DNA of 64,000 nucleotides, from assembly GCA_963837465.1 (NCBI GenBank), contig CAWINB010000004.1, forward strand, positions 330,853 to 394,852, read 5' to 3'. The stretch is from Candidatus Doudnabacteria bacterium (GTDB taxonomy: Bacteria; Patescibacteriota; Doudnabacteria; UBA920). A program made the translations under genes and the position numbers. The notes beneath the pieces are model-generated. The model saw nothing but the letters and a program-made list of their open reading frames with translations. It ran no database searches and was not told the origin of the DNA. Shown in pieces: positions 14,174 through 59,947 of this stretch; positions within the stretch are counted from its first letter, which is position 1, and every line of letters begins with the position of its first letter.

Positions 14174-15577
14174 ACATGGCCCCTATCCGCCAGCGGCCAT
14201 TTTTTGATGTTCCTTAAGTTTAATGTTTTTAAATACTGCTGACTTTGCTTCCTGCATAAGTTTTGCCCATCCGTTATGGCTGTGGCCGGTGCTGATGTCA
14301 TCCAGTTGTTTTTCCGTCCGTCCTGGGGCAAGGTAGCGTGTCCAATTATCCAGAGTCTTCAGTTTGGCATAGGGAGTTAAGTAAATATCATATTTTTTCT
14401 TTTCCTTGCCCTTATGGTCAACCGTGGTGGTGGCAAAGCCGCAGGGTCTGTGGAAGTTCAGGTAAGGGTTAAAAAACTTCTGGTAAAATTCGTTAATCTC
14501 CTGCGCGTAGGTTTTCGGGATATGAGTGTAGCCCATATACTTTCTGATGACACTGCCGTTCTTGCTTTCCACTAAGGCATTGTCATTGCAGTGCCTGCTT
14601 CGTGATTTTGTCTGTTTAATAACTAACCTTCTAAGAATATCAGCTACCGTGTAATTAATGTTCTCGCTACCGTTGTCAGAGTGGAAGTTAATTACTGTAA
14701 AGGGAAACATTTGCTGCAACTGTTCAAATATGGGTTTTAAATGCAGCTCGGAAATCGTTTCCACACAGAAGACCATTTCCCATTGGGTGACTTCATCCAC
14801 CAGGTTTAAGTGGTAAATACCTTTCTCATACTTGCCCAAAGCCAGCTTACGGTCGCCCTGATGCACGGTATCCACCCGCAGATAGCCCGGAATGCCCATA
14901 TTGTCGGGTCTTCTTCTAATACCAATCGGGGTGCTTACTGGATCGGTTATGGTAAAGGTGGTGGAGTGGCTGGTGTAAATTCTTTTAACTCGCAGATTGT
15001 AGATATGGGAAACGGAAATATCTTTTAGTCTTTTAAACCGTTCGTCACCGAATATTTCATATTCAGCCATTAGGATCTGTTTGGTGGCATGGGCATTCAT
15101 TCGTTGGTGCAGATTATCGGTTTCAGCCAGCAATAGTATTTCTGCCGGGCCATAAACAGTAACAAACCGGTTTTTCTTGCCCCAATTCGGGGACAAGGCC
15201 ACTAACCCACTTCCTCTCTTGTTGGTAATCAGTCGTTTTAGCTGTCTGCCCGACATGCCGGTCATCCGTTGGATATATTCCTTAATCTGCCCCTTGTCTT
15301 TTTTGCCTTTAAGCCGGACATAGCCAAACTTGTTTAAGACGTTGTTAATCCATTCATATTTCTCCTTTCTGGAAACTGAGGTAAAATTAATTGCTGTATT
15401 GACCTTTAGAAATTCCTTGATTTGAGCTATGCTCGTAACGCTTAAGTCTGTCATATCGATTGTCATCAAGTCAGTGTGGCAGGCTTATGCTCTTTGTACA
15501 GCTTCCGGGCAACCCTCCGGTTTCAGCAATTGGGGTACCGTCCTCCTTTAGAGGCTGTCTCAAAGATAGGGGCCATG
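14174..15577 (-). mobile_element. insertion sequence (~1.4 kb) with 14-bp terminal inverted repeats and an rve-type DDE transposase
   Basis: ACATGGCCCCTATC at 14174-14187 and its reverse complement GATAGGGGCCATGT at 15564-15577 bracket a single transposase ORF. Confidence 0.6.
14183..15469 (-). CDS. DDE transposase, integrase-core (rve) family (IS481/ISNCY-like; family uncertain)
   Basis: 428 aa: HTH N-terminus, ...HSDNGSENINYTV...HCNDNALVESKNGSV... catalytic core. Confidence 0.8.
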   Translation of the reverse strand: MMTIDMTDLSVTSIAQIKEFLKVNTAINFTSVSRKEKYEWINNVLNKFGYVRLKGKKDKGQIKEYIQRMTGMSGRQLKRLITNKRGSGLVALSPNWGKKNRFVTVYGPAEILLLAETDNLHQRMNAHATKQILMAEYEIFGDERFKRLKDISVSHIYNLRVKRIYTSHSTTFTITDPVSTPIGIRRRPDNMGIPGYLRVDTVHQGDRKLALGKYEKGIYHLNLVDEVTQWEMVFCVETISELHLKPIFEQLQQMFPFTVINFHSDNGSENINYTVADILRRLVIKQTKSRSRHCNDNALVESKNGSVIRKYMGYTHIPKTYAQEINEFYQKFFNPYLNFHRPCGFATTTVDHKGKEKKKYDIYLTPYAKLKTLDNWTRYLAPGRTEKQLDDISTGHSHNGWAKLMQEAKSAVFKNIKLKEHQKMAAGG

Positions 15578-15598
15578 TTCCATTGTATAAGACTGGCG

Positions 15599-15627
15599 CT
15601 TGACACCTTTTTCCAAAAGGTTTATAA
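15599..15627 (+). promoter_or_regulatory. consensus sigma70-type promoter (rRNA P1 candidate)
   Basis: TTGACA-N17-TATAAT exactly, starting 22 bp after the IS right end, ~660 bp upstream of the 16S gene. Confidence 0.55.
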
Positions 15628-16287
15628 TTGCTTGGCGGTTAGGAATTAAATCTTAACGTTTAAAACTTCAATAAACTTTTAGTTCAATTTTGCTCTTATG
15701 TAAGCGGGCATCGCTGATTATAGGAGATCCCTATTGGCACCTGGGAGACTGGACATTATCCACATTTAAGATGGATATGTTTTTTTTAGCCTCAATTTTA
15801 GACCCTTCAGGATCAAATTATAGAGGCTAATCCGCCGAAGCCTTGGCGAAGGCTGGATAACTAAGTTTGATCGCCGATAAATCGGCACGCTACGCCAATC
15901 ATCTTGGTCAAAGCAAAGTACCTCAAAATGAGATGCTCCGCTCCGCTCAGGATGCGTTCCTACGGAACTGTACCTTAACAGTTAAATAGTGATTAGAAAA
16001 CACTGAATACCGCCCGGTATTTAGTGTGTACAAAACCATCGCGTCTTGACCTATTTAAACCAGGTTGAGATGCAATGTTTGCGTCAATTCAATATGAGTT
16101 CAATGATATTCTGTGAATAACAGAAAAATGTTTTGTTAGGTTTACATTTTACAAAAATAAATCTAACGCCAACTTAACATCAATATTTATATTCGTGTTA
16201 AGAGGTTTGTCTTTTAGACAGATCAAACTTTCAATTTTATTTCCGTCCCGCCAAAGGCTGGGACAATTCAGGATTTATAATTGATTT

Positions 16288-17872
<1,585 letters not shown>

Positions 17873-18137
17873 AAGGAACTTTTCTTGACTACACTGGTTT
17901 TCGAACTGTGTGTCAAGACATTCTGTTGGTCGTCGTCAATTATTTCGATTTTTGACGCAATCCTTTCTCAATAAGAAACGACGTAAACGTAAGTGGTTTT
18001 GTATAGCGGTAATTCTACCCATATTTAGCAATAAATATGGGCCTGAGCGCCTTTAATGCTCGGGGTCACTATTTAGCCGTTAAAAAACGGAAATTGCAAT
18101 TAAAAAGCCTGACTTCTACTACTGAAGTGAGGCTTTT
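17873..18137 (+). repeat. element-arm repeat copy 1 (structured ~265-nt arm between the 16S-end core and integrase A1)
   Basis: Shares the blocks ggtcgtcgt, acgacgtaaac, ggtaattctacc, a hairpin ccatatttagcaataaatatgg, gcgcc.ttaatg.t.gggg.tcactatttagccgtta, gaaattgcaa and a terminal hairpin with the copies at 34676-34942 and 47733-47996. Confidence 0.65.
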
Positions 18138-19121
18138 ATGTTTTATAAGGAAAGTGTCGTAGAAACATCTACGAAAACCGACAGTAGGGTTTTGCCATCG
18201 TCCCCGGCTGTTTACAGCCCAAAGATGAGCGAGTTGGTTGATGGGTTTTTAAAGCACGGTCAGTTTGATTTAAGCTGGTCGGCTGGGACAGTCGCAAAAT
18301 ACGGTGAGTGTTTACGGATGACTATTCGGGACATCGGCGATTTGCCGGTAAATGAAATCCGTTTGGTTCACCTTACGGAATTAAAATCTAAAATAATAAT
18401 GCGCGGAGCCGGAGAGTCCAGAGTCGGCTCAATGGTTTTTGCGTTAAAAAGTTTTTTAAAATACTGCAAGGAAATTGTGGAGTTGGATGTGCTGGACTTT
18501 AACAAGATTACCCCGCCAAAACGCCATCGCCGGGAAGTGCTGTTTTTGACCAACGAAGAAATTCAGCGGTTTGTGGATGTTATAAAAATAAAAAATACCT
18601 GGGATGGGAAAAATAAAAAGAGTTGCGTCCGAATGGATGGTCTAAGGTTCAGGGCTTTGGTAGAAGTCTTGCTTGGCAGCGGTATGAGAATATCCGAGGC
18701 GTTATCGCTTAACCGGGGTAGTATAAATTTTGAAAAGAAAGAGGCAAAAATTATCGGTAAAGGTAGCAAGGAACGCACGGTATTTTTTAACGATCGTTCG
18801 TTGGAATGGGTTAGGTATTTATTGGAAGAAAGGAAGGACAGTCACGAACCTTTATTTCTTTCCCAAAAAGGCAACAGGTGGGATAAGGGAGAAGTTAATA
18901 AACTGTTTCAGCGTTATACTAAAAAAGCGGAAATCACCAAAAAATTAACGCCCCATATTCTGCGGCATACTATGGCCACAAACTTACTTTTTAACGGTTG
19001 CCCGATTTCCCACGTCAAAGAAATTTTAGGCCATGATAGGCTGGAAACCACGTGCCGCTACTATCTGGGTTTGGACAAGAGTAAGGCCAAGGAGGCTCAC
19101 GAAAAATTCTTGAATTATTAA
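18138..19121 (+). CDS. tyrosine recombinase/integrase, A-type paralog 1
   Basis: 327 aa: R...HxxR (HILRHTMATNLL)...Y (TTCRYYLG). ~60-70% similar to the recombinases at 34943-35929 and 47997-48968. Confidence 0.9.
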   Translation: MFYKESVVETSTKTDSRVLPSSPAVYSPKMSELVDGFLKHGQFDLSWSAGTVAKYGECLRMTIRDIGDLPVNEIRLVHLTELKSKIIMRGAGESRVGSMVFALKSFLKYCKEIVELDVLDFNKITPPKRHRREVLFLTNEEIQRFVDVIKIKNTWDGKNKKSCVRMDGLRFRALVEVLLGSGMRISEALSLNRGSINFEKKEAKIIGKGSKERTVFFNDRSLEWVRYLLEERKDSHEPLFLSQKGNRWDKGEVNKLFQRYTKKAEITKKLTPHILRHTMATNLLFNGCPISHVKEILGHDRLETTCRYYLGLDKSKAKEAHEKFLNY

Positions 19122-19169: not shown

Positions 19170-19365
19170 GAATAGGTGCCTAACCCCATGGCTAAAACTA
19201 TGGGTATGGTAGAAGTAAAGAATCCTCAGCTACGTAAAGACGGTCTCTTAACCGCTCTCGTAGCTGAGGTGCGTGCGAAAGCATGCGGTGGTGTCGAAAG
19301 GCACTGCTGCGGTTGGGAGGCCCTTTTTGTATCCAACCGCAATTTAAAAACCTCAGCTACAACAA
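19170..19365 (+). promoter_or_regulatory. highly structured leader upstream of the Type III mod gene
   Basis: Series of hairpins: cccatgg...ctatggg; an 11-bp stem cctcagctacg...cgtagctgagg; GNRA-type loops gcgaaagc and tcgaaagg; gcggttgg...ccaaccgc. A second cctcagctac copy abuts the start codon. The 65-aa ORF here is probably spurious. Confidence 0.3.
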
Positions 19366-21255
19366 ATGAATAACAAATCACTGATTTTTGAATTGCCCAA
19401 AATTGTGGAAGAGGGCAAAAAAGAAGTTGAAAAAATATTGGAACGGCTTTCCAGTCAAAGTCGGTTAGGTTTGCAGACTAATGAGCTGGTTCTACCGGCA
19501 AAAGATAGTGGCGGGCTTTTTCGCGGGCATATAGCAGAACAGAAAAACAATGAGTGGCTGAATCGCTTAATATATGGCGATAATTTGTTAGCTATGCAGG
19601 CTTTGCTTTCCGGCGATGAGCAGAGCGGTCTTGCCAGTATGCGTGGGAAAATAGATTTAATTTACATTGATCCACCGTTTGATAGCAAAGCTGACTACCG
19701 CACAAAGGTTACCTTGCCTGGCGTGGATTTGGAGCAAAAGCCAACAGTTATAGAACAATTTGCATACGCCGATACTTGGAAAGATGGCACCGTAAGCTAT
19801 TTGAAAATGCTTTATCCTCGTCTTGCTTTAATGCGCGAGTTGCTCTCCGAACAAGGCAGTATTTATGTGCATATTGATTGGCACGTCGGGCATTATGTAA
19901 AAATTTTACTTGATGATATTTTTGGAAAAAATAATTTTAGGAACGAAATAATTTGGTGGTATCTTTGGGGAGGAAGAGGTAAGACACAATGGAATAGCAA
20001 ACATGATAATATTTTATTTTATTCCAAGGATAATAATTGGATTTTTAACTTTAAGGATGTATTAGATGATCACAATTTAATGACAGAAGGGTCAAAAAAT
20101 AGGTTGAATTACAAAGGTGCGATGGTAACTACCAAAAGCGAATCCTCAGAAATACCCGAAGATAAAGTGCTGCCTTCTGATACTTGGTATATAGCAACCA
20201 TTAATGCAATGGCAAAAGAAAAATTAAATTATGGTACTCAAAAACCAGAATCTTTGGTAGAAAAAATAATCAAAGCATCTTCAAATGAAAATTCCATTGT
20301 AGCAGATTTTTTTGCGGGGAGCGGGACAACTGGAGCGGTGGCGGAAAAACTTGGACGGAGGTGGATTATGTCGGATATTGGCAAGCCAGCGGCTTTGATA
20401 ATGCGCAAACGGTTAATTGACCAAAACGCCAAACCGTTTTTGTATCAATCCATCGGCGACTACCAAAAAGAAGCGTTTACCTCCTCAAAGTTATACCGCC
20501 GGGTTGGCGACCTGGCCCAGGTGGTATTGCAACTTTACGGCGCAATCCCTTTTACAGAAGACCAAAGCCAAATGCGAAATTTGGGGTATATAAAAGACAG
20601 TAAAACTTTGGTAATGGTGGATTCGCCGAATAAAATGACCGGCCTTGCCACGCTTAAAAAAGCGCAGGAGCTTAAAGCCAGTTTTATGGGCGGATTTAAC
20701 AAAGTGGTGGTCTTGGGCTGGAATTTTACTTTTGATATTACCGAAGCTATTCATTCGCTTAACGATAAAAGCGTGGAAGTTTTAGTTATACCCCCGGATC
20801 TGTTAGATAAGTTAAAGAGCAAAGCTGATTACAAAGACTTGATTGACAGCGGTAAAATTCGTTTTTCCTCTTTGCAATATCTGACTTTAAAACCAATTAC
20901 GGTAAAAATATTGCCGGATGATAAAGAACAGTTGCATGTTGAATTAGATAATTATGTTTTACTTTCCCCAGACAACATACCTTTGGACGAAAAGGACAAG
21001 GAAAAATTAAAAGAAGTCATTGCTAAAGATCCATTGTCTTTGGTTGAATATTGGAGCATTGATCCCGATTATGACGGAGTTACTTTTCGCAGCCTATGGC
21101 AGGATTATCGGGAAAATGAAGACAATGACGCAGAGCCTTACCATGTTGTAAAATCGGTAGATTTGACTGTCCCCAAAAAGAAAGAAAAAAGAATTGTATG
21201 CGTAAAGGTCGTGGATGTTTTTGGTTTTGAAAGTATTGCGACCGAGGAAGTTTAA
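19366..21255 (+). CDS. mod: Type III restriction-modification methyltransferase (Mod), beta-class N6A/N4C MTase
   Basis: 629 aa. [12 protein letters not shown] (motif IV, DPPF) precedes [23 protein letters not shown] (motif I, FxGxG); central variable TRD. Confidence 0.85.
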
Positions 21256-21258
21256 CAT

Positions 21259-24171
21259 ATGCCATCACCAATCAGCATAGGCACAAGGGACATTCCCTTA
21301 AAACTTGCCAAGACAATTAGTGAGAAAGTAAATTTAGCTTGGGACAGTGGAGAGTTTTTAGACAAGACCACGGCCGTTACTCAAGATTTGCTAAAATTTT
21401 GGTTTACCGAACCACACATAGAAAACCGATATATTAATTTTCACTCCGGCCAGCGCCAGGCTATTTTAAACACCATTTATTTGCACGAAATTTTAAGCAC
21501 GAAGTCCGTTAAAGATATTTACGAGAACATAGAATTTGAACTGTTGCCGGAAATAGACATAGCCGAGCTAAAAAAGCCAAAATACGAAATTCCCAAATAC
21601 GCTATTAAGATGGCAACCGGGACGGGCAAAACATGGGTGATGCACGCCTTGTTAATTTGGCAATATCTAAACGCCAAATATGAAGCCCAAAAATCAGGAA
21701 AGTTTTCCAAGAACTTTTTATTAGTCGCCCCCGGCATAATCGTCTACGAACGGCTGCTGGATGCTTATTTGGGTAAGGAAAATGAAAATCGGGAACGCCA
21801 ATTTGAGCAATCTGATTTTTACCAGTTTAAGGATTTGCTCTTGCCTCCGGCCTTTAGGGAAGAATTTTTTGGCTTTATCCAGTCGGCCGTAGCCAAGAAG
21901 CAGGACATCGGCAGCAAGGTGACTGGTGACGGCCTGATCGCCATTGCCAACTGGCATTTATTTATGGGGGAAGAAGAATCGGAAGACAAACCCGTTTCGC
22001 CATTAGACAGTCCACAACAAATCCTCAAAGACATCATGCCAATTCGGCCGGGAGTATCCGGCGGCAATTCTTTGGATGCTTTAGATAGTGCCTATTGGGG
22101 CGGCAAGGAATTGGATTATTTGGCCAATTTGCCGGATTTAGTTTGTATAAATGACGAGGCACACCACATCCACGAAAATAAAACCTACGGGGAAGTCAGC
22201 GAGGTGGAATGGCAAAAGAGCTTGAATAAAATTGCCGCCTCCAAAGGCCATAAATTCATGCAGATAGATTTTAGCGCCACCCCTTACGACGTAACCGGCA
22301 GCGGGCAAAATCGTATCAAGCATTACTTTCCCCACATCATTGTGGATTTTAAGCTAAAGACGGCCATAGACGGCGGCTTTGTAAAGACCATAGCCATAGA
22401 CAAGCGCAAGGAACTTGTGGATTTGCCTTTAGACTTTAAATCGGTACGGGACGAAAACAATACCGCTATTGCGCTCTCGGACGGGCAAAAGCTGATGATC
22501 CGTGCCGGATTAAATCGATTAAAAATTCTTGAAACGGAATTTGTTAAATTCACTAAAGATGCCGATGGGGTTTCCAATAAATATCCCAAAATGTTGATCA
22601 TGTGCGAGGATACTAAAGTTACGCCATTGGTTGAGGCTTTTTTTCTGGACGAAGGCTTAAGCGAGGACGAGGTGCTTCGGGTAGATTCCAATAAAAAAGG
22701 CGAGATACCGGAAACGGAATGGAGAGAACTTAAACAAAAATTATTTAATATTGATAAGCATGATAAGCCTAAAGTTATTATTTCCGTGCTCATGTTGCGT
22801 GAGGGTTTTGACGTAAATAATATCTGCGTTATTGTCCCGTTGCGTTCGTCCGCCGCCCCGATTTTGCTGGAACAGACTATTGGCCGTGGTTTGCGGCTGA
22901 TGTGGCGGGAGCCGGAATATCGTGAAGCCAAAATGGACAATATCCGGCAATTGATAAAAGAAAAACGGGAACCGCAAAACTTGCTGGACTTGCTGTTTAT
23001 TGTTGAGCATCCGGCGTTTTTGCAATTCTATGAGGATTTAGACAAAGAAAGCATCGTAGAAGTTGGTGACATACCAGAGGGAGGGGTGTTGGGGGAAATT
23101 ATTAAGGTTGGCTTAAAACCCGACTGGCAAAAATATGATATGTATTGGCCGATCATCTTGCGTGATGCGGAAGATGAAATGTCCGGCAGCCGTCCGCCGG
23201 TTGAAAAAATGGAAAAATTTACCGTTTATGCGTTGGAAGATTTAAAGAAGTTTTTTCATAAAGGCGGCGAAAAATTCGTGTCCGAGGAGTTAACCGTTAA
23301 AACCCGTTTTGGGGAGTACATGGTAGATGCCAGCCTGTTTACTTCCCAAAGCTATAATGAGTATTTGCAGAAAATAATCCACGCAGTAGTCAATAGGACG
23401 GCGAAGACAAGTGCACGTGGGCATAAAGTTTACCCGACGTTACAAATAAACCAACTGCAATTAGTTGAAGCTTTGGATTTTTATATCCGCAATCTGTTGT
23501 TTGGTAACTCATATGACCCGTTTGTTGATAATAATTGGAAAGTGCTTTTACTGAAGAATGGCGTTGTTACCCAGCATATCGTCAAAGAGGTGGGCAAACT
23601 AATTTTTGAAATGCAGAATAACACTACCACGAGCGAGGCATTGGTAGAAAAGCGCCATTTTGCCGAAGTGGACAGTTTGAGGATGAGGGAAAATTATTCC
23701 TTGCCGATTGTAAAAACTATTTACGAAAGATTGCGCTACCCTTCTAACAAAGGCGGTTTTGAAAAAGACTTTTTAAGCTATGCGGATGGCGACGGGCAGG
23801 TGGAGGCGATAATTAAAATCGAAGAATACCAGCACACCTTTGCCGTTATCAACTATATGCGTTCCGATGGTTTTCTCGCCCAATACCACCCGGACTTTTT
23901 AGTGCAGGCGGTCAATAAAATCTATGTTATTGAAACAAAAGCCGACAAAGACATTGACGATAAAAATGTCCGGCAAAAGCAGCTGGCTACGCTGGATTGG
24001 ATTAAGCGGATCAACGGGTTAAAAACCGAAGACAGATTAAAAAAAGAATGGGAATATGTTTTGCTAGGTCAAAGCAATTTTTACGGTTTAAGCAAAAACG
24101 GGGCTTCCATAACTGAAATTTGCGAATTAGCCAAGGTTAGCGAGGCTGCGGTGACCGGCAGGCTACTTTAG
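21259..24171 (+). CDS. res: Type III restriction enzyme Res subunit (SF2 helicase plus PD-(D/E)xK nuclease)
   Basis: 970 aa. Walker A MATGTGKT; DEAH box INDEAHHI; C-terminal HPDF...VIETKADKD. Start 4 bp after the mod stop. Confidence 0.85.
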   Translation: MPSPISIGTRDIPLKLAKTISEKVNLAWDSGEFLDKTTAVTQDLLKFWFTEPHIENRYINFHSGQRQAILNTIYLHEILSTKSVKDIYENIEFELLPEIDIAELKKPKYEIPKYAIKMATGTGKTWVMHALLIWQYLNAKYEAQKSGKFSKNFLLVAPGIIVYERLLDAYLGKENENRERQFEQSDFYQFKDLLLPPAFREEFFGFIQSAVAKKQDIGSKVTGDGLIAIANWHLFMGEEESEDKPVSPLDSPQQILKDIMPIRPGVSGGNSLDALDSAYWGGKELDYLANLPDLVCINDEAHHIHENKTYGEVSEVEWQKSLNKIAASKGHKFMQIDFSATPYDVTGSGQNRIKHYFPHIIVDFKLKTAIDGGFVKTIAIDKRKELVDLPLDFKSVRDENNTAIALSDGQKLMIRAGLNRLKILETEFVKFTKDADGVSNKYPKMLIMCEDTKVTPLVEAFFLDEGLSEDEVLRVDSNKKGEIPETEWRELKQKLFNIDKHDKPKVIISVLMLREGFDVNNICVIVPLRSSAAPILLEQTIGRGLRLMWREPEYREAKMDNIRQLIKEKREPQNLLDLLFIVEHPAFLQFYEDLDKESIVEVGDIPEGGVLGEIIKVGLKPDWQKYDMYWPIILRDAEDEMSGSRPPVEKMEKFTVYALEDLKKFFHKGGEKFVSEELTVKTRFGEYMVDASLFTSQSYNEYLQKIIHAVVNRTAKTSARGHKVYPTLQINQLQLVEALDFYIRNLLFGNSYDPFVDNNWKVLLLKNGVVTQHIVKEVGKLIFEMQNNTTTSEALVEKRHFAEVDSLRMRENYSLPIVKTIYERLRYPSNKGGFEKDFLSYADGDGQVEAIIKIEEYQHTFAVINYMRSDGFLAQYHPDFLVQAVNKIYVIETKADKDIDDKNVRQKQLATLDWIKRINGLKTEDRLKKEWEYVLLGQSNFYGLSKNGASITEICELAKVSEAAVTGRLL

Positions 24172-26424: not shown

Positions 26425-26502
26425 GGGCAATTAGGTTGCTGCCTTGGGATCTGGTTTGCTCATAGAGGGGTTATCCTGAAACCGGGCAGCACCCTAATTG
26501 CC
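26425..26502 (+). promoter_or_regulatory. long imperfect hairpin immediately 5' of the Rep-like gene (candidate origin or operator)
   Basis: gggcaattagg...cctaattgcc outer stem (10-11 bp) with inner stem tgctgcc...ggcagca. Confidence 0.3.
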
Positions 26503-26524
26503 TCTAAATAATCAAAATCCCTCT

Positions 26525-27703
26525 ATGATGATTGACAGTATACGTCTAAGAATTTCTATATTTAGTAGCGTGAAAAATAACTTCTTTTTTAGAGAAAAAA
26601 GAGGGAGCCTTGATTATGATAATAGTAATAGACAGAGGGTTAAACAATTTATACGAACCAATTTTAAGTGGAGCGAACAACAACGGTCTCAGGGTAAATA
26701 TATCCCAAAATATTGGACAGAAACCAACAGCTTTGAGGGCGGTAAACAGTATCTTATTTTTGAATTTTCAGTTCCAAAGTTCTTGCAGGGACATAATTTA
26801 GTCGAAATTGCAGAAACCATGCTGCCTGTCTTGGTGGATCGTCTCGAGGACTTCTGTAAAATAATTCAACTATCAGTTGCGGAGGTAGATATTTTGGGTG
26901 CGCAAGTCACGATGGTCGCATATTGTCATAATGTTCCGATAGCCCATCTGGCTCCTTCGCAAGAAGTTATGAAATTGTTATCTGGATATACCTATCGTTT
27001 TCGTTCTAAATTTCGGCCCGAGCAAAATGAATTGGGACAGATTACTCATTTACAACTCGGTAATAATACTTCCCATGTTACTGCTTATGATAAGTTGCCG
27101 GAGATTATAGTGCATGCCCGAACTACTGAGGAATTGGAAATTGCCAAAATAATTAAAAATAAACAGTTGCCAAATCCTTACGGAAAAATTATTCAAGACA
27201 CCATTAGGTTTGAGCTCACTTTACATAATACTGTGTCGGTAAGGCAAGCAATGAAAAAATTTTATGGTGACAAGCCTTTTTACACACTCAAGGATGTGTT
27301 CAAAGCCGATATTGCGGCGGCATTATTAAAGTTGGAAATGGAGGAAATTTATAATCACCCCCTTAAAAATATAGCTGCAAATTCTAATTATGACTTCCGA
27401 AAACTAAATGATGAGGTCGGTAAATTTATTCGAGACCGCCATCAGGACGGCAAACTGATTGGCTTGCTGGAACAGGCCACCCTTGTTCTACACGCCGGGG
27501 GCTGGGCGGCGGTCAGAACTTATTTAGCGAAAGGTTGTTGCCGCCGGACTTTGCAATACCGGATAGCTGAACTACGCGAAATAGAAAAAATTGGAATTAA
27601 TTTGGGAACGCCAAATGAAAAAATTATGGAATATATTTTAAACCAATTTGGCATTGGAAAAACTAATTTACTTCCTAAAGGCCAACAATTATTGTTTAGC
27701 TAA
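26525..27703 (+). CDS. candidate replication-initiation protein (Rep_trans/phage-CRI-like; low-confidence assignment)
   Basis: ~393 aa from MMIDSIRLRI... The N-terminal IDSIRLRIS resembles the conserved start of rolling-circle initiator families. The track start at 26498 is a TTG inside the hairpin. Confidence 0.4.
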   Translation: MMIDSIRLRISIFSSVKNNFFFREKRGSLDYDNSNRQRVKQFIRTNFKWSEQQRSQGKYIPKYWTETNSFEGGKQYLIFEFSVPKFLQGHNLVEIAETMLPVLVDRLEDFCKIIQLSVAEVDILGAQVTMVAYCHNVPIAHLAPSQEVMKLLSGYTYRFRSKFRPEQNELGQITHLQLGNNTSHVTAYDKLPEIIVHARTTEELEIAKIIKNKQLPNPYGKIIQDTIRFELTLHNTVSVRQAMKKFYGDKPFYTLKDVFKADIAAALLKLEMEEIYNHPLKNIAANSNYDFRKLNDEVGKFIRDRHQDGKLIGLLEQATLVLHAGGWAAVRTYLAKGCCRRTLQYRIAELREIEKIGINLGTPNEKIMEYILNQFGIGKTNLLPKGQQLLFS

Positions 27704-27789
27704 TTTATATGCAACTGCCATGTTTATCTATAGCCAACAAAAACCATACAGTCTATGCGTCTTTTGTCTCCCTAAGTATTACGTCAATA

Positions 27790-27870
27790 CACGTGCAATC
27801 TTTTGCACATTTTCACAGAGAATAATTGTGCAAGTTATAAAGCGCAGCTTAGGCAATATATGTGCAATCG
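27790..27870 (+). promoter_or_regulatory. TGTGCAA(T) repeat cluster upstream of B-type recombinase 1
   Basis: gtgcaat at 27793, inverted ttgcac at 27804, tgtgcaa at 27828, tgtgcaat at 27861. Confidence 0.35.
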
Positions 27871-27916
27871 CAAAAAGCCAAAATGTTACAAATCAATGAC
27901 TGAATAAAGTTGTCTC

Positions 27917-28885
27917 ATGAGCCAGTTTAACCAAAACCCAGATCCTAATTTTATACAGCAGCCATCTGCTCCGGTTTTAGGTTTGCCGGTCGTAAATACC
28001 CCACAGCTTTTGACCTTTGAACAGTTGATCCCGTTGTTTGGCGATTACGTCACTTACGATTTGAATCATAGTCCTAAGACATCCAAAAAGTATGTCGAGG
28101 GGTTAAGGCATATTTTGAAAGACCTACCCTTTATAGTTTACCCCCAAGACTTAACGTTGCCGCATATTACGGAACTGAAGAAAAAAGTGCAGTTGCGTGG
28201 CGCAAAAGAGTCCCGAGTTAATAGTCTACTATTCTCATTGCGAAAATTTTTAACCTATTGTAACGAAGTCTATAAACTGGTTACAATAAATCCAAAGGAA
28301 ATTAAAGTTATGCGATTACCAAAAAGGGAAGTGGTGTTTTTGGCTCCTGCCGAAATTGAGCAATTTTTAAGCGCAATGGATACAACAACTTTGCCGGGAT
28401 TACGAATACGGACGCTTGTAGAGGTGCTACTTTCCACTGCTATGCGAATTTCCGAAGCCCTGTCGGTCAGCCGTGGGGACATTGACTGGGAGGGCAAGGA
28501 AATTGTCATTATAGGGAAAGGCAATAAGCAGCGGACGGTATTTTTAAGCGATAGGGCAATCGGTTGGCTTCAAACCTATTTACTCCGGCGTAAGGATAAT
28601 GACCCTGCTTTGTTCGTAACCTTTGGCGAACCCAAACGCTTGTCGCCTTATGACTTGTCTAAGCAGTTTAAGCACTATGCTGAAAAAGCAGGATTAAAGA
28701 AAAAAGTAACACCCCATATTTTACGCCATACGGCCGCGACAACCATGTCCCATAACGGCGCGGACATTCGTAACATTCAGCTAATTTTAGGCCATAGCGA
28801 CATTAAAACAACCGCCAAATATTACTTAGGCGTGGACAAAGAGGCTTTAAAGGAAGCCCATAAAAAGTTTCTAAAATACGATTAG
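27917..28885 (+). CDS. tyrosine recombinase, B-type paralog 1
   Basis: 322 aa: ...IIGKGNKQRTVFL...FVTFG...HILRHTAATTM...TTAKYYLG. Distinct subfamily from the A-type copies. Confidence 0.9.
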   Translation: MSQFNQNPDPNFIQQPSAPVLGLPVVNTPQLLTFEQLIPLFGDYVTYDLNHSPKTSKKYVEGLRHILKDLPFIVYPQDLTLPHITELKKKVQLRGAKESRVNSLLFSLRKFLTYCNEVYKLVTINPKEIKVMRLPKREVVFLAPAEIEQFLSAMDTTTLPGLRIRTLVEVLLSTAMRISEALSVSRGDIDWEGKEIVIIGKGNKQRTVFLSDRAIGWLQTYLLRRKDNDPALFVTFGEPKRLSPYDLSKQFKHYAEKAGLKKKVTPHILRHTAATTMSHNGADIRNIQLILGHSDIKTTAKYYLGVDKEALKEAHKKFLKYD

Positions 28886-30673: not shown

Positions 30674-31717
30674 TTGTTAAAAGTCATTTTTATAAGTTTA
30701 ATTATGAAAACGCAATTAAAAATAAGTTACGAGGAAATCATTTCACTCGAAAATTTGTTTGCCGCCTGGCAGGAGTTTTTGCCGGGCAAGAGAAAAAAGA
30801 AAGACGTGCAGGAATTTGGCCTTAGGCTTGCTGATAACATTTTACAGCTTCAGGAGGAACTTGCCAATTTTAGCTATATCCACGGCCCATACAAGGCCTT
30901 TAACATTTCTGACCCCAAGCCGAGGAATATCCATAAGGCAAGCGTTCGGGACAGAGTTTTACATCACGCCATTTACCGCAAACTATATCCGTTTTTCGAC
31001 AAAACTTTTATCGGCAGTTCGTATTCCTGCCGTTTGGACAAAGGAGTTCACAAGGCTTTGAATAAGTTTAGGGCATTGGCGTTTAAAGCAAGTAAAAATC
31101 ATACGCAAACAGCTTGGGTGCTCAAGTGTGATATTAAAAAGTTTTTCGCCAGCATTGACCATGCAAAACTGCTGAAAATTTTATCAGCTTACGTTCCCGA
31201 TAAAAATATTCTTTGGGTTTTAGAGCGAATTATTTATAGCTTTGATTATAAGGTAGCAGGCCGCGGCCTCCCGCTTGGCAACCTGACCTCCCAATTATTT
31301 TGCAACGTATATATGAACGAATTTGACCAATTCATAAAACACAAACTCAAGGCCAAATATTATATCCGTTATGCTGATGATTTTGTTTTTTTATCGGGTA
31401 GCAAGGACGAGCTAATATCCTTAGTTCCTAAAGTAGCCGAGTTTTTAGGAGAGGACTTAAAACTGTCTTTGCATCCGGATAAAGTTTTTATAAAGACCTT
31501 GGCCTCGGGCGTGGACTTCCTGGGCTGGGTGCATTTCCCTCATTACCGGGTTCTAAGAAAAAATACCGGCAGAAGAATGTTCAAACGAATTTACGGCCAT
31601 CCAACAAATGAAACATTCCAGTCATATTTAGGGTTAATGAGCCACGGAAATACTTACGGGCTTAAACAAAAATTGTTGAATTGGTATGGGTTACTTAAAA
31701 CAGCACAGCAGGAATAG
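30674..31717 (+). CDS. DGR-type reverse transcriptase
   Basis: 347 aa. RT domains 1-7 with YADD (YIRYADDFVFL) and the DGR-specific LGNLTSQLFCNVY (I/LGxxxSQ) motif. Confidence 0.9.
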   Translation: MLKVIFISLIMKTQLKISYEEIISLENLFAAWQEFLPGKRKKKDVQEFGLRLADNILQLQEELANFSYIHGPYKAFNISDPKPRNIHKASVRDRVLHHAIYRKLYPFFDKTFIGSSYSCRLDKGVHKALNKFRALAFKASKNHTQTAWVLKCDIKKFFASIDHAKLLKILSAYVPDKNILWVLERIIYSFDYKVAGRGLPLGNLTSQLFCNVYMNEFDQFIKHKLKAKYYIRYADDFVFLSGSKDELISLVPKVAEFLGEDLKLSLHPDKVFIKTLASGVDFLGWVHFPHYRVLRKNTGRRMFKRIYGHPTNETFQSYLGLMSHGNTYGLKQKLLNWYGLLKTAQQE

Positions 31718-34587: not shown

Positions 34588-34675
34588 CAATTAAATTGAT
34601 CTTTTAAATTTTTAATACAGTAGTAGTTTGTCAGGCAATTTCCGTTTACAACGGCTCAGAAACACCTCCTTTCTA
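34588..34675 (+). repeat. right-arm repeat X copy 1 with the 16S-end core (CACCTCCTTTCT at 34664-34675)
   Basis: aattgatcttttaaatttttaatacagtagtagtttgtcaggcaatttccgtttacaacggctcagaaacacctcc is near-identical to 51785-51865. Confidence 0.8.
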
Positions 34676-34942
34676 AGGAATAAATATGCAGCCTTAAACT
34701 TTTCGAAGTTTATGTTGTTGCACATTCCAGTGGTCGTCATCTTCTATTTCGATAGAAGGTGCACATACTCTAACGATTGAACGTAAACGAACGGTTTTGT
34801 AAAAGGTAATTCTACCCTTATTTTCGCAAGATTATAAGGAGTCTCAACGCCTTAAATGTTGGGAGTCACTATTTAGCCGTTAAGGGAACTTAACGAAATT
34901 GCAAATAAAAGCCTCGTCATCAGCAATGATAACGAGGTTTTT
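34676..34942 (+). repeat. element-arm repeat copy 2 (upstream of integrase A2)
   Basis: Same conserved blocks as 17873-18137. Hairpin variant ccttattttcgcaagattataagg. Confidence 0.65.
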
Positions 34943-35929
34943 ATGTATGAGGTTAATTCGGTAGAAAGAGTCGCAAAAGGTGGAATTGCGGCGACAGTCA
35001 GCCCCGCCGCTCCTATCGGCACAAAGATTAGCACTTTGGTGCCGCAATTCTTGGCTTATGGCCAGTATGACCTGTCCTTTGCCGCAGGCACCATAGAGAA
35101 ATACCGCGATAGCCTAAACGTCTTTATGCGGGACGTTGGGGATTTGCCCGTAGAGGAATTAAACTTTGGGCATTTTACTTTGCTGAAACAAAAAATTATG
35201 GAAAGGGGGTCGGGGGTCTCACGCATAGCGGGCGTGGTCTTTGCGATGAAAAGTATGTTAAAGTTTGCTACCGACGTATTGGAGATGCAGATTTTGGATT
35301 ATAAGAAAATCAGAGCGCCGAAGCGGCGCAGGCGGGACGTAGTTTATTTAACCAATGCCGAAATCCAGCAGTTCGTTGACAGCATAAAGTTTGAAAAATG
35401 CTGGACGGGCAATACCCGTAAAAAGGGCATCAGCGTCCACCGCCTGAGGTTTCGGACTTTGGTTGAAGTCTTGCTTGGCACGGGGATGCGTATAAGCGAA
35501 GCATTGTCGCTTACAAGGGATGTTATAAACTTTGAAAAAGGCGAGGCTAAGATAATCGGCAAAGGAAGCAAGGAGCGCACAGTGTTTTTTAACGAACGGG
35601 CTTTGTATTGGATTAAGTTTTATTTGGAACAGAGAAACGACGACAATCCCGTTATATTTTTAAACCGAAAAGGCAAGCCGCTGGACAGGGGCGATGCCGA
35701 TACTTTGTTTAAGCGTTACGCAGAAAGGTCAGGTATAACTAAAAAATTAACGCCGCACATTTTGCGGCACACGATGGCGACGAATCTGCTTTTTAACGGA
35801 TGCCCGATTGGCCATATTAAGGAAATCCTCGGACACGACCGATTAGAGACAACTTGTCGTTATTATTTGGGCTTAGACAAAGATAAAGCTAAAGAAGCCC
35901 ACGGCCAATTTTTAAATTACGAACAATAA
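34943..35929 (+). CDS. tyrosine recombinase/integrase, A-type paralog 2
   Basis: 328 aa: LRFRTLVEVLLGTGMRISEALSL...KIIGKGSKERTVFFNE...HILRHTMATNLLFNGCPI...TTCRYYLG. Confidence 0.9.
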   Translation: MYEVNSVERVAKGGIAATVSPAAPIGTKISTLVPQFLAYGQYDLSFAAGTIEKYRDSLNVFMRDVGDLPVEELNFGHFTLLKQKIMERGSGVSRIAGVVFAMKSMLKFATDVLEMQILDYKKIRAPKRRRRDVVYLTNAEIQQFVDSIKFEKCWTGNTRKKGISVHRLRFRTLVEVLLGTGMRISEALSLTRDVINFEKGEAKIIGKGSKERTVFFNERALYWIKFYLEQRNDDNPVIFLNRKGKPLDRGDADTLFKRYAERSGITKKLTPHILRHTMATNLLFNGCPIGHIKEILGHDRLETTCRYYLGLDKDKAKEAHGQFLNYEQ

Positions 35930-39632: not shown

Positions 39633-40682
39633 ATGAACAATATGACAACCTTCACTAAACAGTGGACTTCCAATAGGCCTAGAATTTTCGGGGTCTTTGG
39701 GAAAACCCAGCAGGATGACACATTTGAAATTTTAATTCCAAAATTTCTTGACTACGCCCAATTTGATTTGAAACTGGCCAAAGAGACCATCGGAAAATAC
39801 AAAGAATCTTTGGGTTGGGTGACAAGGTATCTGCCCGACGTGGAACGCCCCGCCCAAATGACGCTGGAAGATGTTACCCGAATTAAAAAGCAGGTGGCAA
39901 TGCGTGGCAATAGCGAGGCTCGGACTAACTCCATTATCTTCGCCTTGCGGAAGTTTTTGGACTATTGCGGCAAGCGGATGCAGATTGAAACCATTGACCC
40001 AAAGACCATAGAGCCGCTGAAAATCCCCAAGCGGGAAGTTATCTACCTTAACAAGGACGAGATAAAAAATCTGCGTGATGTATTTGACTTAGCCAACAAG
40101 CGGGAGTTCCGAATGCGGGTGCTGGTGGAATTTCTGCTCGGCACGGGAATGAGAATCTCTGAAGCGCTATCGGTCAATCGTGAGCAGATTAATTATGACA
40201 GCAAGGAAATAAAAATTGTCGGCAAGGGCAACAAGGAGCGCACAGTTTTTGTTTCCGATGATGCCTTAGGCTGGATAAAAAGGTATCTGGATACCCGCAC
40301 GGATGACAATCCTGCTGTCTTTATAACCTTTGGCGAGCAAGAAAGGTTAAGGCGGGGCGACTTGGCAGAATTATTAAGAGGTTATGGAATAAAAGCGGGG
40401 CTACAGAAGAAAGTTACGCCGCATATCTTGAGACACTCATCGGCAACCACGATGATGCGGAAAGGCTGTCCTCTGCCTTACATCCAGCAGTTGCTCGGCC
40501 ACGCCGACATTAAAACGACCGCCAAATATTATCTTGGCGTTGATAAACAATCCGTCAAAGATGCTCACGAAAAATATCTTAAGTTCGACCACCACCGTTT
40601 GGGAATGGCGGCACCTGTGCGTAAAGGTATTGACTTGGATAGCTACCTTGAGTATTTCTCGGCCTATCTTCCGAAAGAGTAG
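39633..40682 (+). CDS. tyrosine recombinase, B-type paralog 2
   Basis: 349 aa: ...KIVGKGNKERTVFV...FITFG...HILRHSSATTMM...TTAKYYLG. Confidence 0.9.
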   Translation: MNNMTTFTKQWTSNRPRIFGVFGKTQQDDTFEILIPKFLDYAQFDLKLAKETIGKYKESLGWVTRYLPDVERPAQMTLEDVTRIKKQVAMRGNSEARTNSIIFALRKFLDYCGKRMQIETIDPKTIEPLKIPKREVIYLNKDEIKNLRDVFDLANKREFRMRVLVEFLLGTGMRISEALSVNREQINYDSKEIKIVGKGNKERTVFVSDDALGWIKRYLDTRTDDNPAVFITFGEQERLRRGDLAELLRGYGIKAGLQKKVTPHILRHSSATTMMRKGCPLPYIQQLLGHADIKTTAKYYLGVDKQSVKDAHEKYLKFDHHRLGMAAPVRKGIDLDSYLEYFSAYLPKE

Positions 40683-40823: not shown

Positions 40824-41861
40824 ATGGATACAAATTACCCCAATAAAATAAACAAAATTTTAAAGCCTAAGGCCGATAAGCGGTTGCCTTTGGTTATTGA
40901 CCTTTTTGCTGGCTGTGGAGGCTTGGCTTTGGGTTTTGAAGCGCAGGGTTTTGAAACTTTAGGCTATGAAATGGATAAAGACTGTTGCGAAACCTATAAT
41001 AAAAATTTAACTGGTAAATGTATACAGCAGTTTTTGGATGTTAATAGTGATTTTCCCAAAGCGGAAATTGTGATTGGCGGTCCACCTTGCCAGCCATTCA
41101 GCGTTAGGGGAAAACAAAAAGGTTTGGCCGACGAGCGGAACGGTTTTCCAGCTTTTATTGCCGCCGTTGAAAAAGCCAAGCCCCGCTTTTGGATGTTTGA
41201 AAATGTGAGAGGGTTATTTTACAAAAATAAAGAATATTTAAACGAAGTAATAGAAACGCTAAAAAATCTTGGTTATTTTGTTGAGTCTCATTTAGTTAAT
41301 GCTTCCAATTATGAAGTTCCCCAAAACAGGGAGAGGGTTATAGTAATAGGCTATAAAAATGGAAGTTTTAAATTTCCCCAAAAGCTCGGCACTAAAGTGA
41401 CGGCTGGGGAAGCTTTGGGCGAAATGGCCTTATCTGCTCCTAAGGGTTCAAGGTATTTGACCCCAAGTATGGACACTTATGTTGCTAAATATGAAGCGGC
41501 TTCTAAATGTGTTGTCCCAAGAGATTTGCATATGCACCTACCAGCAAGGACTTTGACGTGCAGGAATTTGTCGGGTTCTACAAGCGATATGCACAGAATT
41601 AAATTACCAAACGGCAAGCGTAGACAATTACTCGTTAGAGAGGCCGCTCGCTTGCAGAGCTTTCCTGATAAGTTTGAGTTTTGCGGGAGCGAGAGCAGTG
41701 CTTTTAAACAAATAGGCAATGCTGTGCCGCCTATGCTTTCCTACCACATTGCTGGTGCTGTAAAAGAATATTTGGAATCCGTAAATAAAACCCCGACCAA
41801 ACATATCAGAAATAATTCATTTGCTTACCAATATCAGCAAGCTATAAAATTCAATGTATAA
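40824..41861 (+). CDS. DNA (cytosine-5)-methyltransferase (Type II R-M)
   Basis: LVIDLFAGCGGLALGF (I), GGPPCQPFS (IV), ENVRGL (VI), QIGNAVPP (X). Confidence 0.9.
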   Translation: MDTNYPNKINKILKPKADKRLPLVIDLFAGCGGLALGFEAQGFETLGYEMDKDCCETYNKNLTGKCIQQFLDVNSDFPKAEIVIGGPPCQPFSVRGKQKGLADERNGFPAFIAAVEKAKPRFWMFENVRGLFYKNKEYLNEVIETLKNLGYFVESHLVNASNYEVPQNRERVIVIGYKNGSFKFPQKLGTKVTAGEALGEMALSAPKGSRYLTPSMDTYVAKYEAASKCVVPRDLHMHLPARTLTCRNLSGSTSDMHRIKLPNGKRRQLLVREAARLQSFPDKFEFCGSESSAFKQIGNAVPPMLSYHIAGAVKEYLESVNKTPTKHIRNNSFAYQYQQAIKFNV

Positions 41862-46056: not shown

Positions 46057-46124
46057 ATACGGCTACAACTTCCTCACTTAGCAAAAATCGCCCAAAAGGC
46101 GGTTTTTTTTGTTATAATTTAACT

Positions 46125-47509: not shown

Positions 47510-47732
47510 TGTATAAGAATCTATTAAAACTAAATCGGCTTTAAACAATAGTGGGCGGTAGTGGGGGTAAACTTTGGAGGGGATAACTTTGTTGCTAAAA
47601 AATTTTACTGCCGCTAACATCCGAGTAGCAATTTAAAAATTAAATATCATCGCTGTAAGCGAGCTTGAAAATAAATAGTGGGAGCGAGTGGGGGTGAACA
47701 ACTTTACACCTCGGATTAAACACCTCCTTTCT
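47510..47732 (+). repeat. right-arm repeat Y copy 2 with full core CACCTCCTTTCT (47721-47732)
   Basis: See 45850-46056. Contains tandem ACACCTC half-sites (ttACACCTCgg and aaACACCTCct). Confidence 0.75.
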
Positions 47733-47996
47733 AAGGAACAATATGCACCCTTTTCCCTTTTCGAAGGGGAATGTTGGTTCACATTCCGTAGGTCGTCGTT
47801 AATTTTTTCGAAAATTAGCGCACTTCTTGAAACTTCAAAGAACGACGTAAACTGGTGGTTTTGTAACGGTAATTCTACCGTATTTAGCAATAAATACGGC
47901 CTAAGCGCCATTAATGCTTGGGATCACTATTTAGCCGTTAAAGGTTAAACACGAAATTGCAAAGAAAGTCTCGGCCGTTATGGTGCGAGGCTTTTT
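47733..47996 (+). repeat. element-arm repeat copy 3 (upstream of integrase A3)
   Basis: Same conserved blocks. Hairpin ccgtatttagcaataaatacgg (compensatory change versus copy 1 ccatattt...aaatatgg). Confidence 0.65.
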
Positions 47997-48968
47997 ATGT
48001 TCTATGCAAAAACGTCACTTGAATCAACCGCTAAAGTAGGAACTTTAGCGCCAATCTCCAATGATTTGACAATGAGCCAGCTCATTCCAATGTTTTTAAA
48101 GTACGGTCAGTTTGAATTAATGTTCTCACAGAACACGCTCACCAAATACGACGAGTGTTTAAAATGGGTTGTTAGGGACATCGGCGATTTGAAGGTCACG
48201 GAGTTAAGCCTGTTCCATTTTACCGAGTTAAAACAGATAATAACTAACCGTGGTTGCGGCACCAGCCGCGTTGCTTCCATGGTGTTCTCCATGAAGAGTT
48301 TCCTTAAGTATTGCAAGGACTATCTAGAGCTGCCGGTCATGGATTACAAAAAGATAAGGTCGCCGCGGTTTAAGCGCCGTGAAGTGATTTATTTAACTAA
48401 CGAAGAGATTGAGCAGTTTGTCAGCGCCATTAAAATAGAGAATGGCCCTCGTGCCATAAATTCGGTACGTATGGATGGCCTAAGGTTTCGGGTACTGGTG
48501 GAAGTCTTGCTCGGCACCGGCATGCGCATTTCTGAAGCCTTGTCGCTTAACAGGGATATGGTTGATTTTGAAAAGGCCGAAGCCAAGATTATAGGCAAAG
48601 GCAGCAAAGAACGTACAGTATTTTTCAGCGAGCGGTCGCTTGATTGGGTCAAGCGTTATCTATCCCTGCGTACAGACAATGAACCCGCTTTGTTTCTCAC
48701 CCAGCAGAATACGCGCCTGTCCAAGATAGATGTGCCCGGCTTCTTTAAACGGTACAGCAAGAAGGCCGGTATAACGAAGAAACTGACACCGCACGTGCTC
48801 AGGCATACCTGTGCTACGAACCTCTTGTTTAACGGCTGTCCCATAAACAATGTTCAAGTAATTTTAGGGCATGACCGGCTGGAAACCACCTGTCGCTATT
48901 ATCTCGGTGTTGACAAAACAAAAGCCAAAGAGGCACATGGCAACTTTTTAAATTATCAATTGTCGTAA
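47997..48968 (+). CDS. tyrosine recombinase/integrase, A-type paralog 3
   Basis: 323 aa: LRFRVLVEVLLGTGMRISEALSLNRDMVDFEKAEAKIIGKGSKERTVFFSE...HVLRHTCATNLLFNGCPI...TTCRYYLG. Confidence 0.9.
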   Translation: MFYAKTSLESTAKVGTLAPISNDLTMSQLIPMFLKYGQFELMFSQNTLTKYDECLKWVVRDIGDLKVTELSLFHFTELKQIITNRGCGTSRVASMVFSMKSFLKYCKDYLELPVMDYKKIRSPRFKRREVIYLTNEEIEQFVSAIKIENGPRAINSVRMDGLRFRVLVEVLLGTGMRISEALSLNRDMVDFEKAEAKIIGKGSKERTVFFSERSLDWVKRYLSLRTDNEPALFLTQQNTRLSKIDVPGFFKRYSKKAGITKKLTPHVLRHTCATNLLFNGCPINNVQVILGHDRLETTCRYYLGVDKTKAKEAHGNFLNYQLS

Positions 48969-59889: not shown

Positions 59890-59947
59890 AAACTAAATAG
59901 TGACTCCTGCAACACAGTTCCTACGTCGGGGTGAACACCTCCTTTCT
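59890..59947 (+). repeat. distal junction of the array: inverted aaatagtgac box plus core CACCTCCTTTCT (59936-59947)
   Basis: cggggtgaaCACCTCCTTTCTttcgc. ggggtgaaca also occurs in repeat Y. aaatagtgac is the reverse complement of the gtcactattt box of the integrase-proximal arms. Confidence 0.6.

Follow-up and report, generated by a model that had tools for sequence, protein, structure and literature searches.

The 64,000-nucleotide stretch of contig CAWINB010000004.1 from a Candidatus Doudnabacteria bacterium analyzed herein (the window) contains a stand-alone 16S rRNA gene and, at three places, a segment of ~265 nt (an arm) that lies between the terminal 12 nt of 16S, or a repeat of them, and the start codon of a tyrosine integrase gene (int). 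We propose, with a probability of about 75%, that the arm is an element-borne copy of the 16S 3′ trailer (the external transcribed spacer) followed by the element’s own intrinsic terminator, and that it acts as RNA. The structure of the arms would be that of a pre-rRNA 3′ trailer because their conserved boxes pair with the 16S leader, and because the arm is nearly or exactly identical to the native trailer in two related loci, L167 and L168 (L numbers designate the loci used for comparison).

Islands at the end of a 16S rRNA gene

We read the window as a tandem array of tyrosine-integrase islands that have inserted at the very 3′ terminus of a stand-alone 16S gene in a member of the Patescibacteria (candidate phyla radiation, CPR). 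The gene exceeds the Rfam model by about 50 nt (Table 1), and Rfam and tRNA scans found neither a 23S nor a tRNA gene anywhere in the 64-kb window. Its last 12 nt, CACCTCCTTTCT, which include the anti-Shine-Dalgarno sequence, recur at positions 34663, 47721, and 59936, in each case with sequence unrelated to 16S on their left. Arm 1 starts directly at the 16S end, arms 2 and 3 start directly after their CACCTCCTTTCT repeats, and all three terminate at an integrase ATG, as a preliminary description made from the sequence had placed them. The same description reported ordered boxes within arms of only partial identity, and a three-way alignment (mean column identity 79%) recovers them in the shared order GGTCGTCGT, ACGACGTAAAC, GGTAATTCTACC, a GCGCC..TCACTATTTAGCCGTTA block, and GAAATTGCAA. 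The three integrases are 59–63% identical in pairwise comparison. This arrangement is that of an integrative element, in that a tyrosine integrase adjoins the attachment (att) site and direct repeats of the gene 3′ end flank the element, the target being 16S rRNA rather than a tRNA or tmRNA. To the right of 59947, a LytR-family gene (60018) and an ABC transporter gene look chromosomal.

Table 1 Positions of the 16S locus, arms, and island genes in the window, with RNA matches in two related loci where stated.
Feature	Position	Strand	Details
ORF with weak rve (DDE integrase core) match	14183-15469	-	directly 5′ of the 16S promoter
Sigma-70-type consensus promoter TTGACA-17-TATAAT	15600..15628	+	5′ of the 16S leader; 12/12 match; putative function
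Leader box H-c, ..TTAACAGTTAAATAGTGAT..	15972..15996	+	pairs with arm box GTCACTATTTAGCCGTTAA; 17-22 bp helix with each window arm
Leader box H-b, GTACAAAACCATC	16028..16040	+	pairs with arm box GGTGGTTTTGTA; 9-12 bp helices
Leader box H-a, ATGTTTGCGTCAATT	16075..16089	+	pairs with arm box (GATT)GACGTAAAC; 9-14 bp helices
16S rRNA gene, full-length bacterial	16287..17870	+	Rfam RF00177, 1274.6 bits, model positions 1-1533
Core 1, array left junction	17861..17872	+	final 12 nt of 16S, CACCTCCTTTCT, including anti-Shine-Dalgarno
Arm 1	17873..18137	+	ends at int ATG 18138
Arm 1, trailer part	17873..18102	+	
Arm 1, P1 hairpin	17883-17918	+	UUCG loop
Arm 1, segment pairing with leader	17925-17930	+	pairs with leader 16168-16173
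Arm 1, box GGTCGTCGT	17928-17936	+	
Arm 1, P2 hairpin	about 17934-17957	+	UUCG loop
Arm 1, H-a box	17980-17990	+	pairs with leader 16075-16085
Arm 1, H-b box	17993-18004	+	pairs with leader 16028-16039
Arm 1, AATTCTA	18011-18017	+	
Arm 1, P4 hairpin	18018-18041	+	GCAA loop; hairpin of the preliminary description
Arm 1, P5	18042-18064	+	
Arm 1, H-c box	18065-18082	+	pairs with leader 15976-15993
Arm 1, box GAAATTGCAA	18090-18099	+	
Arm 1, terminator-shaped hairpin	18103..18137	+	A-tract, 13-bp stem, U-tract, abutting int ATG; free energy -17.8 kcal/mol, z -5.3
Tyrosine integrase, island 1	18138..19121	+	PF00589, E 9.6e-40
Defence cargo	19366-24171		type III methylase and Res helicase
Nested mobile genes	26498-28885		Phage_CRI-type rolling-circle replication protein beside second tyrosine integrase (27917-28885)
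Reverse transcriptase	30674-31717		in island
Core 2	34663..34674	+	16S-terminus repeat, CACCTCCTTTCT match
Arm 2	34675..34942	+	trailer copy and terminator hairpin; ends at int ATG 34943
Tyrosine integrase, island 2	34943..35929	+	PF00589, E about 1e-40
Third kind of integrase	39633-40682		beside ParB-like gene
Defence cargo	40824-42873		C5 methylase and PstI/BsuBI-family endonuclease
Core 3	47721..47732	+	16S-terminus repeat, CACCTCCTTTCT match
Arm 3	47733..47996	+	trailer copy and terminator hairpin; ends at int ATG 47997
Tyrosine integrase, island 3	47997..48968	+	PF00589, E about 1e-40
Defence cargo	50383-51779		AbiEii toxin gene and upstream partner ORF
Right-end box CTAAATAGTGACTCC	59893..59907	+	same sense as leader H-c; complementary to arm box TCACTATTTAG, 15/15 with arm 2
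Distal core, array right junction	59936..59947	+	CACCTCCTTTCT match
LOOT RNA (Rfam RF03000, 61-80 bits)	19177-19305; 689-802; L167 13494-13611; L008 7404-7518		

Scans by integrase alignment gathered a family of 1234 proteins at E <= 1e-60, whose close members were found only in Patescibacteria assemblies (Saccharibacteria, Doudnabacteria, Colwellbacteria, and Moraniibacteriota). The arm lies directly 3′ of a genuine 16S end (GGATCACCTCCTTTCT) in eleven loci (L001, L002, L004, L005, L008, L009, L081, L082, L166, L167, and L168), and after an element right end plus core in L003, L007, L083, L084, L086, L097-L099, L115-L117, and L165. Several contigs begin a few dozen bases 5′ of a core, as would follow from the expected breakage of assemblies at an rRNA gene. 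When L005 is compared to the window, homology sets in exactly at the core and spans the arm, int, and a further 400 nt (89% identity); the island next to 16S in L005 is of the type that stands third in the window (arm 3 plus its int). At L007 the type represented by arm 1 and its int occupies an internal position, homology again starting at the core, and an int and arm that are identical between L165 and L166 follow a right end in the former and a 16S end in the latter. These loci show the arm travelling with int as part of the element, and it is kept in every close family member, over integrase identities of 45–92%. Among those more distant integrase relatives that lack the core, no adjoining tRNA or Rfam RNA was found.

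The two loci with native trailers each hold one complete island with both junctions present. In L167 a perfect direct repeat (187/187 nt) stands at both junctions and runs from CACCTCCTTTCT through the whole trailer, and its copies diverge exactly where two different terminator hairpins begin, the element’s being followed by int and the host’s by host genes; in L168 the junction repeat is about 130 nt long with one mismatch. This means that the island carries the last 12 nt of 16S and a copy of the native trailer, then its own terminator and int. Such a copy might be passive baggage, that is, host trailer picked up through imprecise excision or gene conversion and without a selected role on the element, since the perfect identity in L167 suggests recent copying or conversion and the covariation of the arms (below) may have arisen in hosts. 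We give this little credence. Tyrosine recombinases require identity only in a short overlap, so that the 175 nt of extra identity would be unneeded for recombination; moreover, the arm is retained across the whole close family, and internal arms, which are not now trailers, keep a complementarity to the leader as good as that of arm 1.

Complementarity between arms and the 16S leader

The boxes conserved among the arms have complements, colinear and antiparallel, in the 16S 5′ leader (~300 nt 5′ of the gene), which itself consists of conserved boxes separated by variable hairpins and lies 3′ of the perfect promoter. In bacterial rRNA precursors, it is well established that leader and trailer pair and thereby enclose 16S. 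The three window arms form the same set of helices with the window leader (17–22, 9–12, and 9–14 bp) as do the arms of L005 and L009 with their own leaders, in which leader box H-c is conserved; H-b is invariant in the leader alignment. In genomes with other box sequences, the leaders of which differ correspondingly, the helices measure 25–26 and 15 bp (L008), 22 nt (L014), 23 and 14 bp (L167), and 29 and 12 bp (L168). The boxes accordingly exist in four versions (window/L005/L009, L167, L168, and L008/L014), each of which matches its own leader.

The complementarity was assessed from local matches, co-folding, and decoys with strict chaining; an earlier score, which allowed cheap gaps and had homologous arms among its decoys, was dropped. 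Against all other segments of the locus, the true leader ranked top in eight of nine cases (z 4–17), and in the ninth, arm 1, three of 1212 decoys tied with it. Whole-length RNAduplex of the 390-nt leader against the arms was uninformative, as huge loops are allowed (arm 1 −107 vs −92 shuffled).

The leader of L005 also contains a boxA-like sequence, TGCTCTTTAACAG (about 1305–1317), which overlaps a box that pairs with the arm and resembles the rrn antiterminator boxA of E. coli. The equivalent sequence in the window leader, TGTACCTTAACAG (about 15966–15983), is more diverged.

Taken as an element-borne trailer, the arm would work as follows. The islands would recombine at the last 12 nt of the stand-alone Patescibacteria 16S gene, integration would separate 16S from its native trailer, and the arm would substitute for it. 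In the pre-rRNA, arm boxes TGGT, GACGTAAAC, GGTTTTGTA, TTCTA, and GTCACTATTTAGCCGTTAA would pair with leader boxes and so rebuild the leader-trailer stalk enclosing 16S, of which the variable co-varying hairpins (UUCG- and GNRA-capped, P4 among them) would be local expansions. The last hairpin and its U-tract would then end the rRNA transcript just before int and bury the ribosome-binding site of int. We infer co-transcription with 16S, processing of the stalk by nucleases, insulation of int, and a selective benefit to both element and host; co-transcription is consistent with the perfect promoter, which is the sole plus-strand promoter-like site within 15450–16300, and with the finding that no strong terminator lies between it and the end of the arm.

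Several points weigh against this interpretation. The co-transcription and cleavage that it calls for are deduced from the sequence, and the covariation between leader and trailer rests on small numbers, leader and arm both having been obtained from seven genomes (the window and six others). The covariation within the arms may predate their carriage by elements and have arisen in host trailers, and a role in recombination at the DNA level may exist as well, right ends carrying an inverted copy of one box. RNAalifold alone proposes a pairing inside the arm, of GGTTTTGTA with TATTTAGCC, which we set aside because both boxes form far stronger Watson-Crick pairing with the leader. Lastly, the window has no counterpart of the displaced native trailer of L167 and L168. 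Its segment 59948–60017 is not trailer-like and has no complementarity to the leader: behind the distal core, ttcgcac.. and a small hairpin precede the LytR gene. A deletion may be the cause, or the host may by now depend on island-borne trailers. An empty site was sought through the LytR flank, the homologs of which (73–75% identity) are not next to a 16S gene and share no upstream synteny.

A surrogate trailer could even make the host’s only 16S gene depend on the island, an addiction based on rRNA processing. Precise loss of all islands would leave 16S without a leader-pairing partner, because no native trailer exists beyond the distal core of the window, and int expression could be tied to rRNA transcription because int sits just past the rRNA terminator. 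We offer this idea tentatively and think it would more probably fail than hold; were it true, addiction would stabilize defence islands at the most conserved site of the genome.

Structure of the arms and of their terminal hairpin

No Rfam family matched the arm, even at E up to 10. Five local helices, derived by comparison of nine arms, have standard pairs in 92.3% of cells, compared to 33–52% when the partners are slid; 18 of 39 pairs are compensatory with both sides changed, and the covariation score is 0.451 vs 0.229 shuffled (0 of 500 shuffles reach the observed value), all of these figures being somewhat inflated as the structure comes from the same nine sequences. In a MAFFT alignment of the 5′ domain of 12 arms, P1 was not alignable, its stem lengths being variable, and P2 was compensatory in seven of eight pairs. 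Across the arm helices, G-U cells (about 55) far outnumber A-C cells (about 7), and the plus strand of the arm folds to a minimum free energy of −80.2 kcal/mol (z −5.3) vs −67.5 for the minus strand, a difference of 12.7 kcal/mol. The G-U excess, the UUCG and GCAA loops, and the strand bias point to an RNA of the sense shared by 16S and int. The preliminary description had proposed selection on structure, which is thereby supported for a single strand, the sense strand common to both genes.

That proposal was built on a co-varying hairpin, here P4, together with the prediction that homologous arms would count against it if the hairpin positions varied without compensation. In every further arm that has P4 (L001, L003, L005, two arms of L007, and L009) its changes are compensated, as are those of P5 wherever P5 occurs, and no uncompensated arm was encountered. 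In short-form arms (L117 and L127, and similarly L083 and L097) P4 and P5 are missing together, and GGTTTTGTAC-TTTCTA-GTCACTATTT is contiguous, matching the continuous leader stretch AAATAGTGA-TTAGAA ... GTACAAAACC. Since arms without P4 and P5 match a continuous leader, P4 would be an optional expansion inserted in the leader-trailer stalk.

Co-varying hairpins next to a tyrosine recombinase gene also recall sites that recombine as folded single-stranded DNA, such as integron attC or the attachment site of CTX phage, and the preliminary description had pointed to attC; a rolling-circle Rep-like gene (Phage_CRI, E 1.4e-06) within island 1 would suit such a site. We consider this most improbable. 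Whether units or genomes are compared, homology starts at the 12-nt core, where all unit junctions lie as well, outside every hairpin; P4 and P5 are wholly missing from some functional-looking arms; no integron context (intI, attI, or cassette array) was seen, each unit having its own Xer-like integrase; and neither the leader pairing nor the identity to native trailers has a place in it.

Another explanation raised at the outset, arm-type integrase sites, has more in its favour. Here the arm would be the P′ arm of a lambda-type attP, its boxes double-stranded DNA sites for integrase, a directionality factor, or a bending protein, and its palindromes dimer sites. The arm does sit between crossover core and int, the usual place of an attP arm, and an inverted copy of its TCACTAT box is present in right ends, so that inverted repeats flank the core; in addition, arm 2 contains AGTCACTAT, which is similar to the arm-type consensus of lambda, (C/A)AGTCACTAT. 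However, no box is repeated within an arm, and in the integrases (about 325 aa) Pfam recognizes a catalytic domain and a weak central-domain match but no arm-binding N-terminal domain, although absence from Pfam is not proof. The helices accept G-U but not A-C pairs and are hence strand-specific, their loops are of the UUCG and GNRA kinds, the leader that the boxes match is 1.9 kb distant and plays no part in a DNA synapse, and in L167 the arm is identical to the native trailer. Arm-type sites are thus not borne out, and we judge a lambda-type arm unlikely.

The inverted box itself, which had been noted at the distal junction (59896–59905), is real, but as a single match it is close to chance, 72 of 1217 decoys matching equally well. 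In the close family, right ends contain AATAGTG(A/G) (59893–59907 and 47665–47690 in the window; L003, L165, and L167), a box shared with the 16S leader and complementary to TCACTAT of the arm, and the motif TAGTG[AG] is present in 5 of the 22 right ends of elements, compared to a background of 1.9%. A general complementarity of right ends to the arm that follows was rejected, as it did not exceed chance in most loci and only TAGTG[AG] was enriched. Transcripts of attP or attR could fold as a pre-rRNA stalk that lacks 16S.

The second hairpin of the preliminary description, abutting the integrase start codon, was found as a strong hairpin at the ATG in all 19 arms examined (free energy −16 to −35 kcal/mol), preceded by an A-tract. 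In 18 of the 19 (z −1.8 to −10.4), a stable stem-loop runs directly into TTTT(T), as in an intrinsic terminator, and 0–8 nt separate the U-tract from the int ATG. In the 18 arms beyond arm 1 the stems are unrelated in sequence between families, yet they have the same shape and place. In the close family, a Shine-Dalgarno-like GAGG lies in the 3′ strand of this hairpin, 5–6 nt before the ATG. A simple terminator scanner flagged only the minus-strand reading of arm 2. As judged from its shape and place, the hairpin would end the rRNA transcript and keep int silent in read-through RNA.

It could therefore be asked whether the whole arm is a cis-regulatory 5′ untranslated region of the int mRNA, a structured switch of transcription or translation. 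Its structure is on the int sense strand, and the last hairpin, with its terminator shape, its contact with the ATG, and its GAGG, could affect int expression; to that extent the earlier suggestion of an RNA element controlling int stands. It does not extend to the conserved boxes, which are already explained by leader pairing. Furthermore, the only sigma-70-like promoter detected in or 5′ of the arms is that of 16S (TTGCAA of the GAAATTGCAA box, tried as a −35 element, had no promoter-scanner support and was dropped), no Rfam family matches, and at the far junction of L167 and L168 this sequence stands without int, as the native trailer. For the arm as a whole we hold this improbable, and it may apply to the last 35 nt only.

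The first bases of the arm, AAGGAA or AAGGAG, can pair with the preceding anti-Shine-Dalgarno (UCCUU/AAGGA; 17861–17890 in the window), a feature invariant in nine of nine arms. The pairing may mask the anti-Shine-Dalgarno in the precursor, or be the dyad of a recombinase core site; the CCTCCTTTCTAAGGA junction is common at the native 16S ends of other bacteria.

Relation to known elements, variant loci, and island cargo

The islands resemble those islands and prophages that target tRNA and tmRNA genes, in which a tyrosine integrase lies beside attP and crossover takes place at the 3′ terminus of a gene for a stable RNA; the element is flanked by direct repeats of this terminus and restores the gene, and tandem arrays form at one site. 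The present islands differ in their target, which is the last 12 nt of 16S rRNA with the anti-Shine-Dalgarno, and in that the restoring segment runs about 175–230 nt past the gene, would rebuild pairing with a leader about 1.9 kb 5′, and adds a terminator. The likeness to the RNase III stem of pre-16S and to rrn terminators lies in the complementary flanks of 16S, a boxA-like element (TGCTCTTTAACAG in L005), and an end in an intrinsic terminator; unlike the rrn stalk, the trailer half comes from a mobile element, exists in several diverged copies per genome, and would form a stalk interrupted by many hairpin expansions. R2 and R1 retrotransposons of eukaryotic 28S genes are likewise mobile elements specialized for an rRNA gene, with a terminal RNA structure shaped by rRNA co-transcription. 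R2 inserts by target-primed reverse transcription, the invaded 28S copy being disrupted, and is freed by a ribozyme, whereas the islands depend on a tyrosine recombinase, do not damage 16S, and seem to mimic the spacer that flanks it. With integron attC and CTX phage attP(+) the islands share co-varying hairpins beside a tyrosine recombinase gene, but their crossover lies outside the hairpins, integron architecture is missing, the hairpins are optional, and the conserved parts pair with a distant leader. With lambda attP they share the place of the arm between core and int and the inverted box copy across the core, but not a repeated arm motif or a detectable arm-binding domain, and the arm structure is strand-specific and RNA-like.

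Full-text searches of the literature, in which journal coverage is incomplete, found no account of integrative elements at the 16S 3′ end. The logic of tRNA/tmRNA islands being known, what appears new amounts to the 16S terminus as a target together with restoration of a long leader-pairing trailer and a terminator. CPR bacteria usually have a single rRNA gene set, and their genomic islands would integrate at the extreme 3′ end of 16S with its anti-Shine-Dalgarno, a site that would be a predictable hotspot where defence islands gather. Restoration of the 3′ end would be extended to a long-range RNA interaction, with islands that carry a working flank for rRNA processing and termination. The presence of 16S directly 5′ would also explain why CPR contigs often break just before an integrase, and the diverged arms would provide natural variants of the pre-16S stalk for studies of rRNA maturation in organisms that are hard to culture.

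Some loci depart from the common layout. In L101 (1205–2700) a related integrase, preceded by duplicated consensus promoters and with its own hairpin at the ATG, lies 5′ of a core, which is followed by a trailer without int; this trailer is a homolog of the L082 arm that adjoins 16S. Either the island layout differs here, or the trailer is a native one that has been displaced. In L127 (about 545–600) a full arm and terminator precede a decayed integrase N-terminus that ends in a stop, and the sequence ..CTCCGCAGGAACA there is also the right end before the core in L116 (about 260–282), which may point to recombination or decay within the first part of int. A second type of junction occurs in the window at 46039–46058 and 51849–51867, where right-end copies stop at AACACCTCC and continue nnnCGGCTACA..AAATCGCCC..hairpin, T-run..TATAAT-like in place of TTTCTAAGGAA and an arm, suggesting another element family or a different crossover point at the same 16S-derived site. 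The 16S genes themselves are interrupted by a group I intron in L005 (Rfam RF00028, 2071–2566) and by a LAGLIDADG homing-endonuclease open reading frame (ORF) in L168 (9173–9637).

The cargo of the window islands is mostly defence-related (type III and type II restriction-modification systems and an AbiEii gene), with a reverse transcriptase, transposases, and further integrases (Table 1). Given the rve ORF 5′ of the promoter and the islands 3′ of the gene, the 16S locus is flanked by mobile-element genes on both sides. LOOT RNA lies within these islands and was matched twice in the window, once 56 nt after the int of island 1 and before the type III methylase gene, and once preceding a gene for a bPH_2 protein; with the matches in L167 and L008, its association with islands may be worth a survey.

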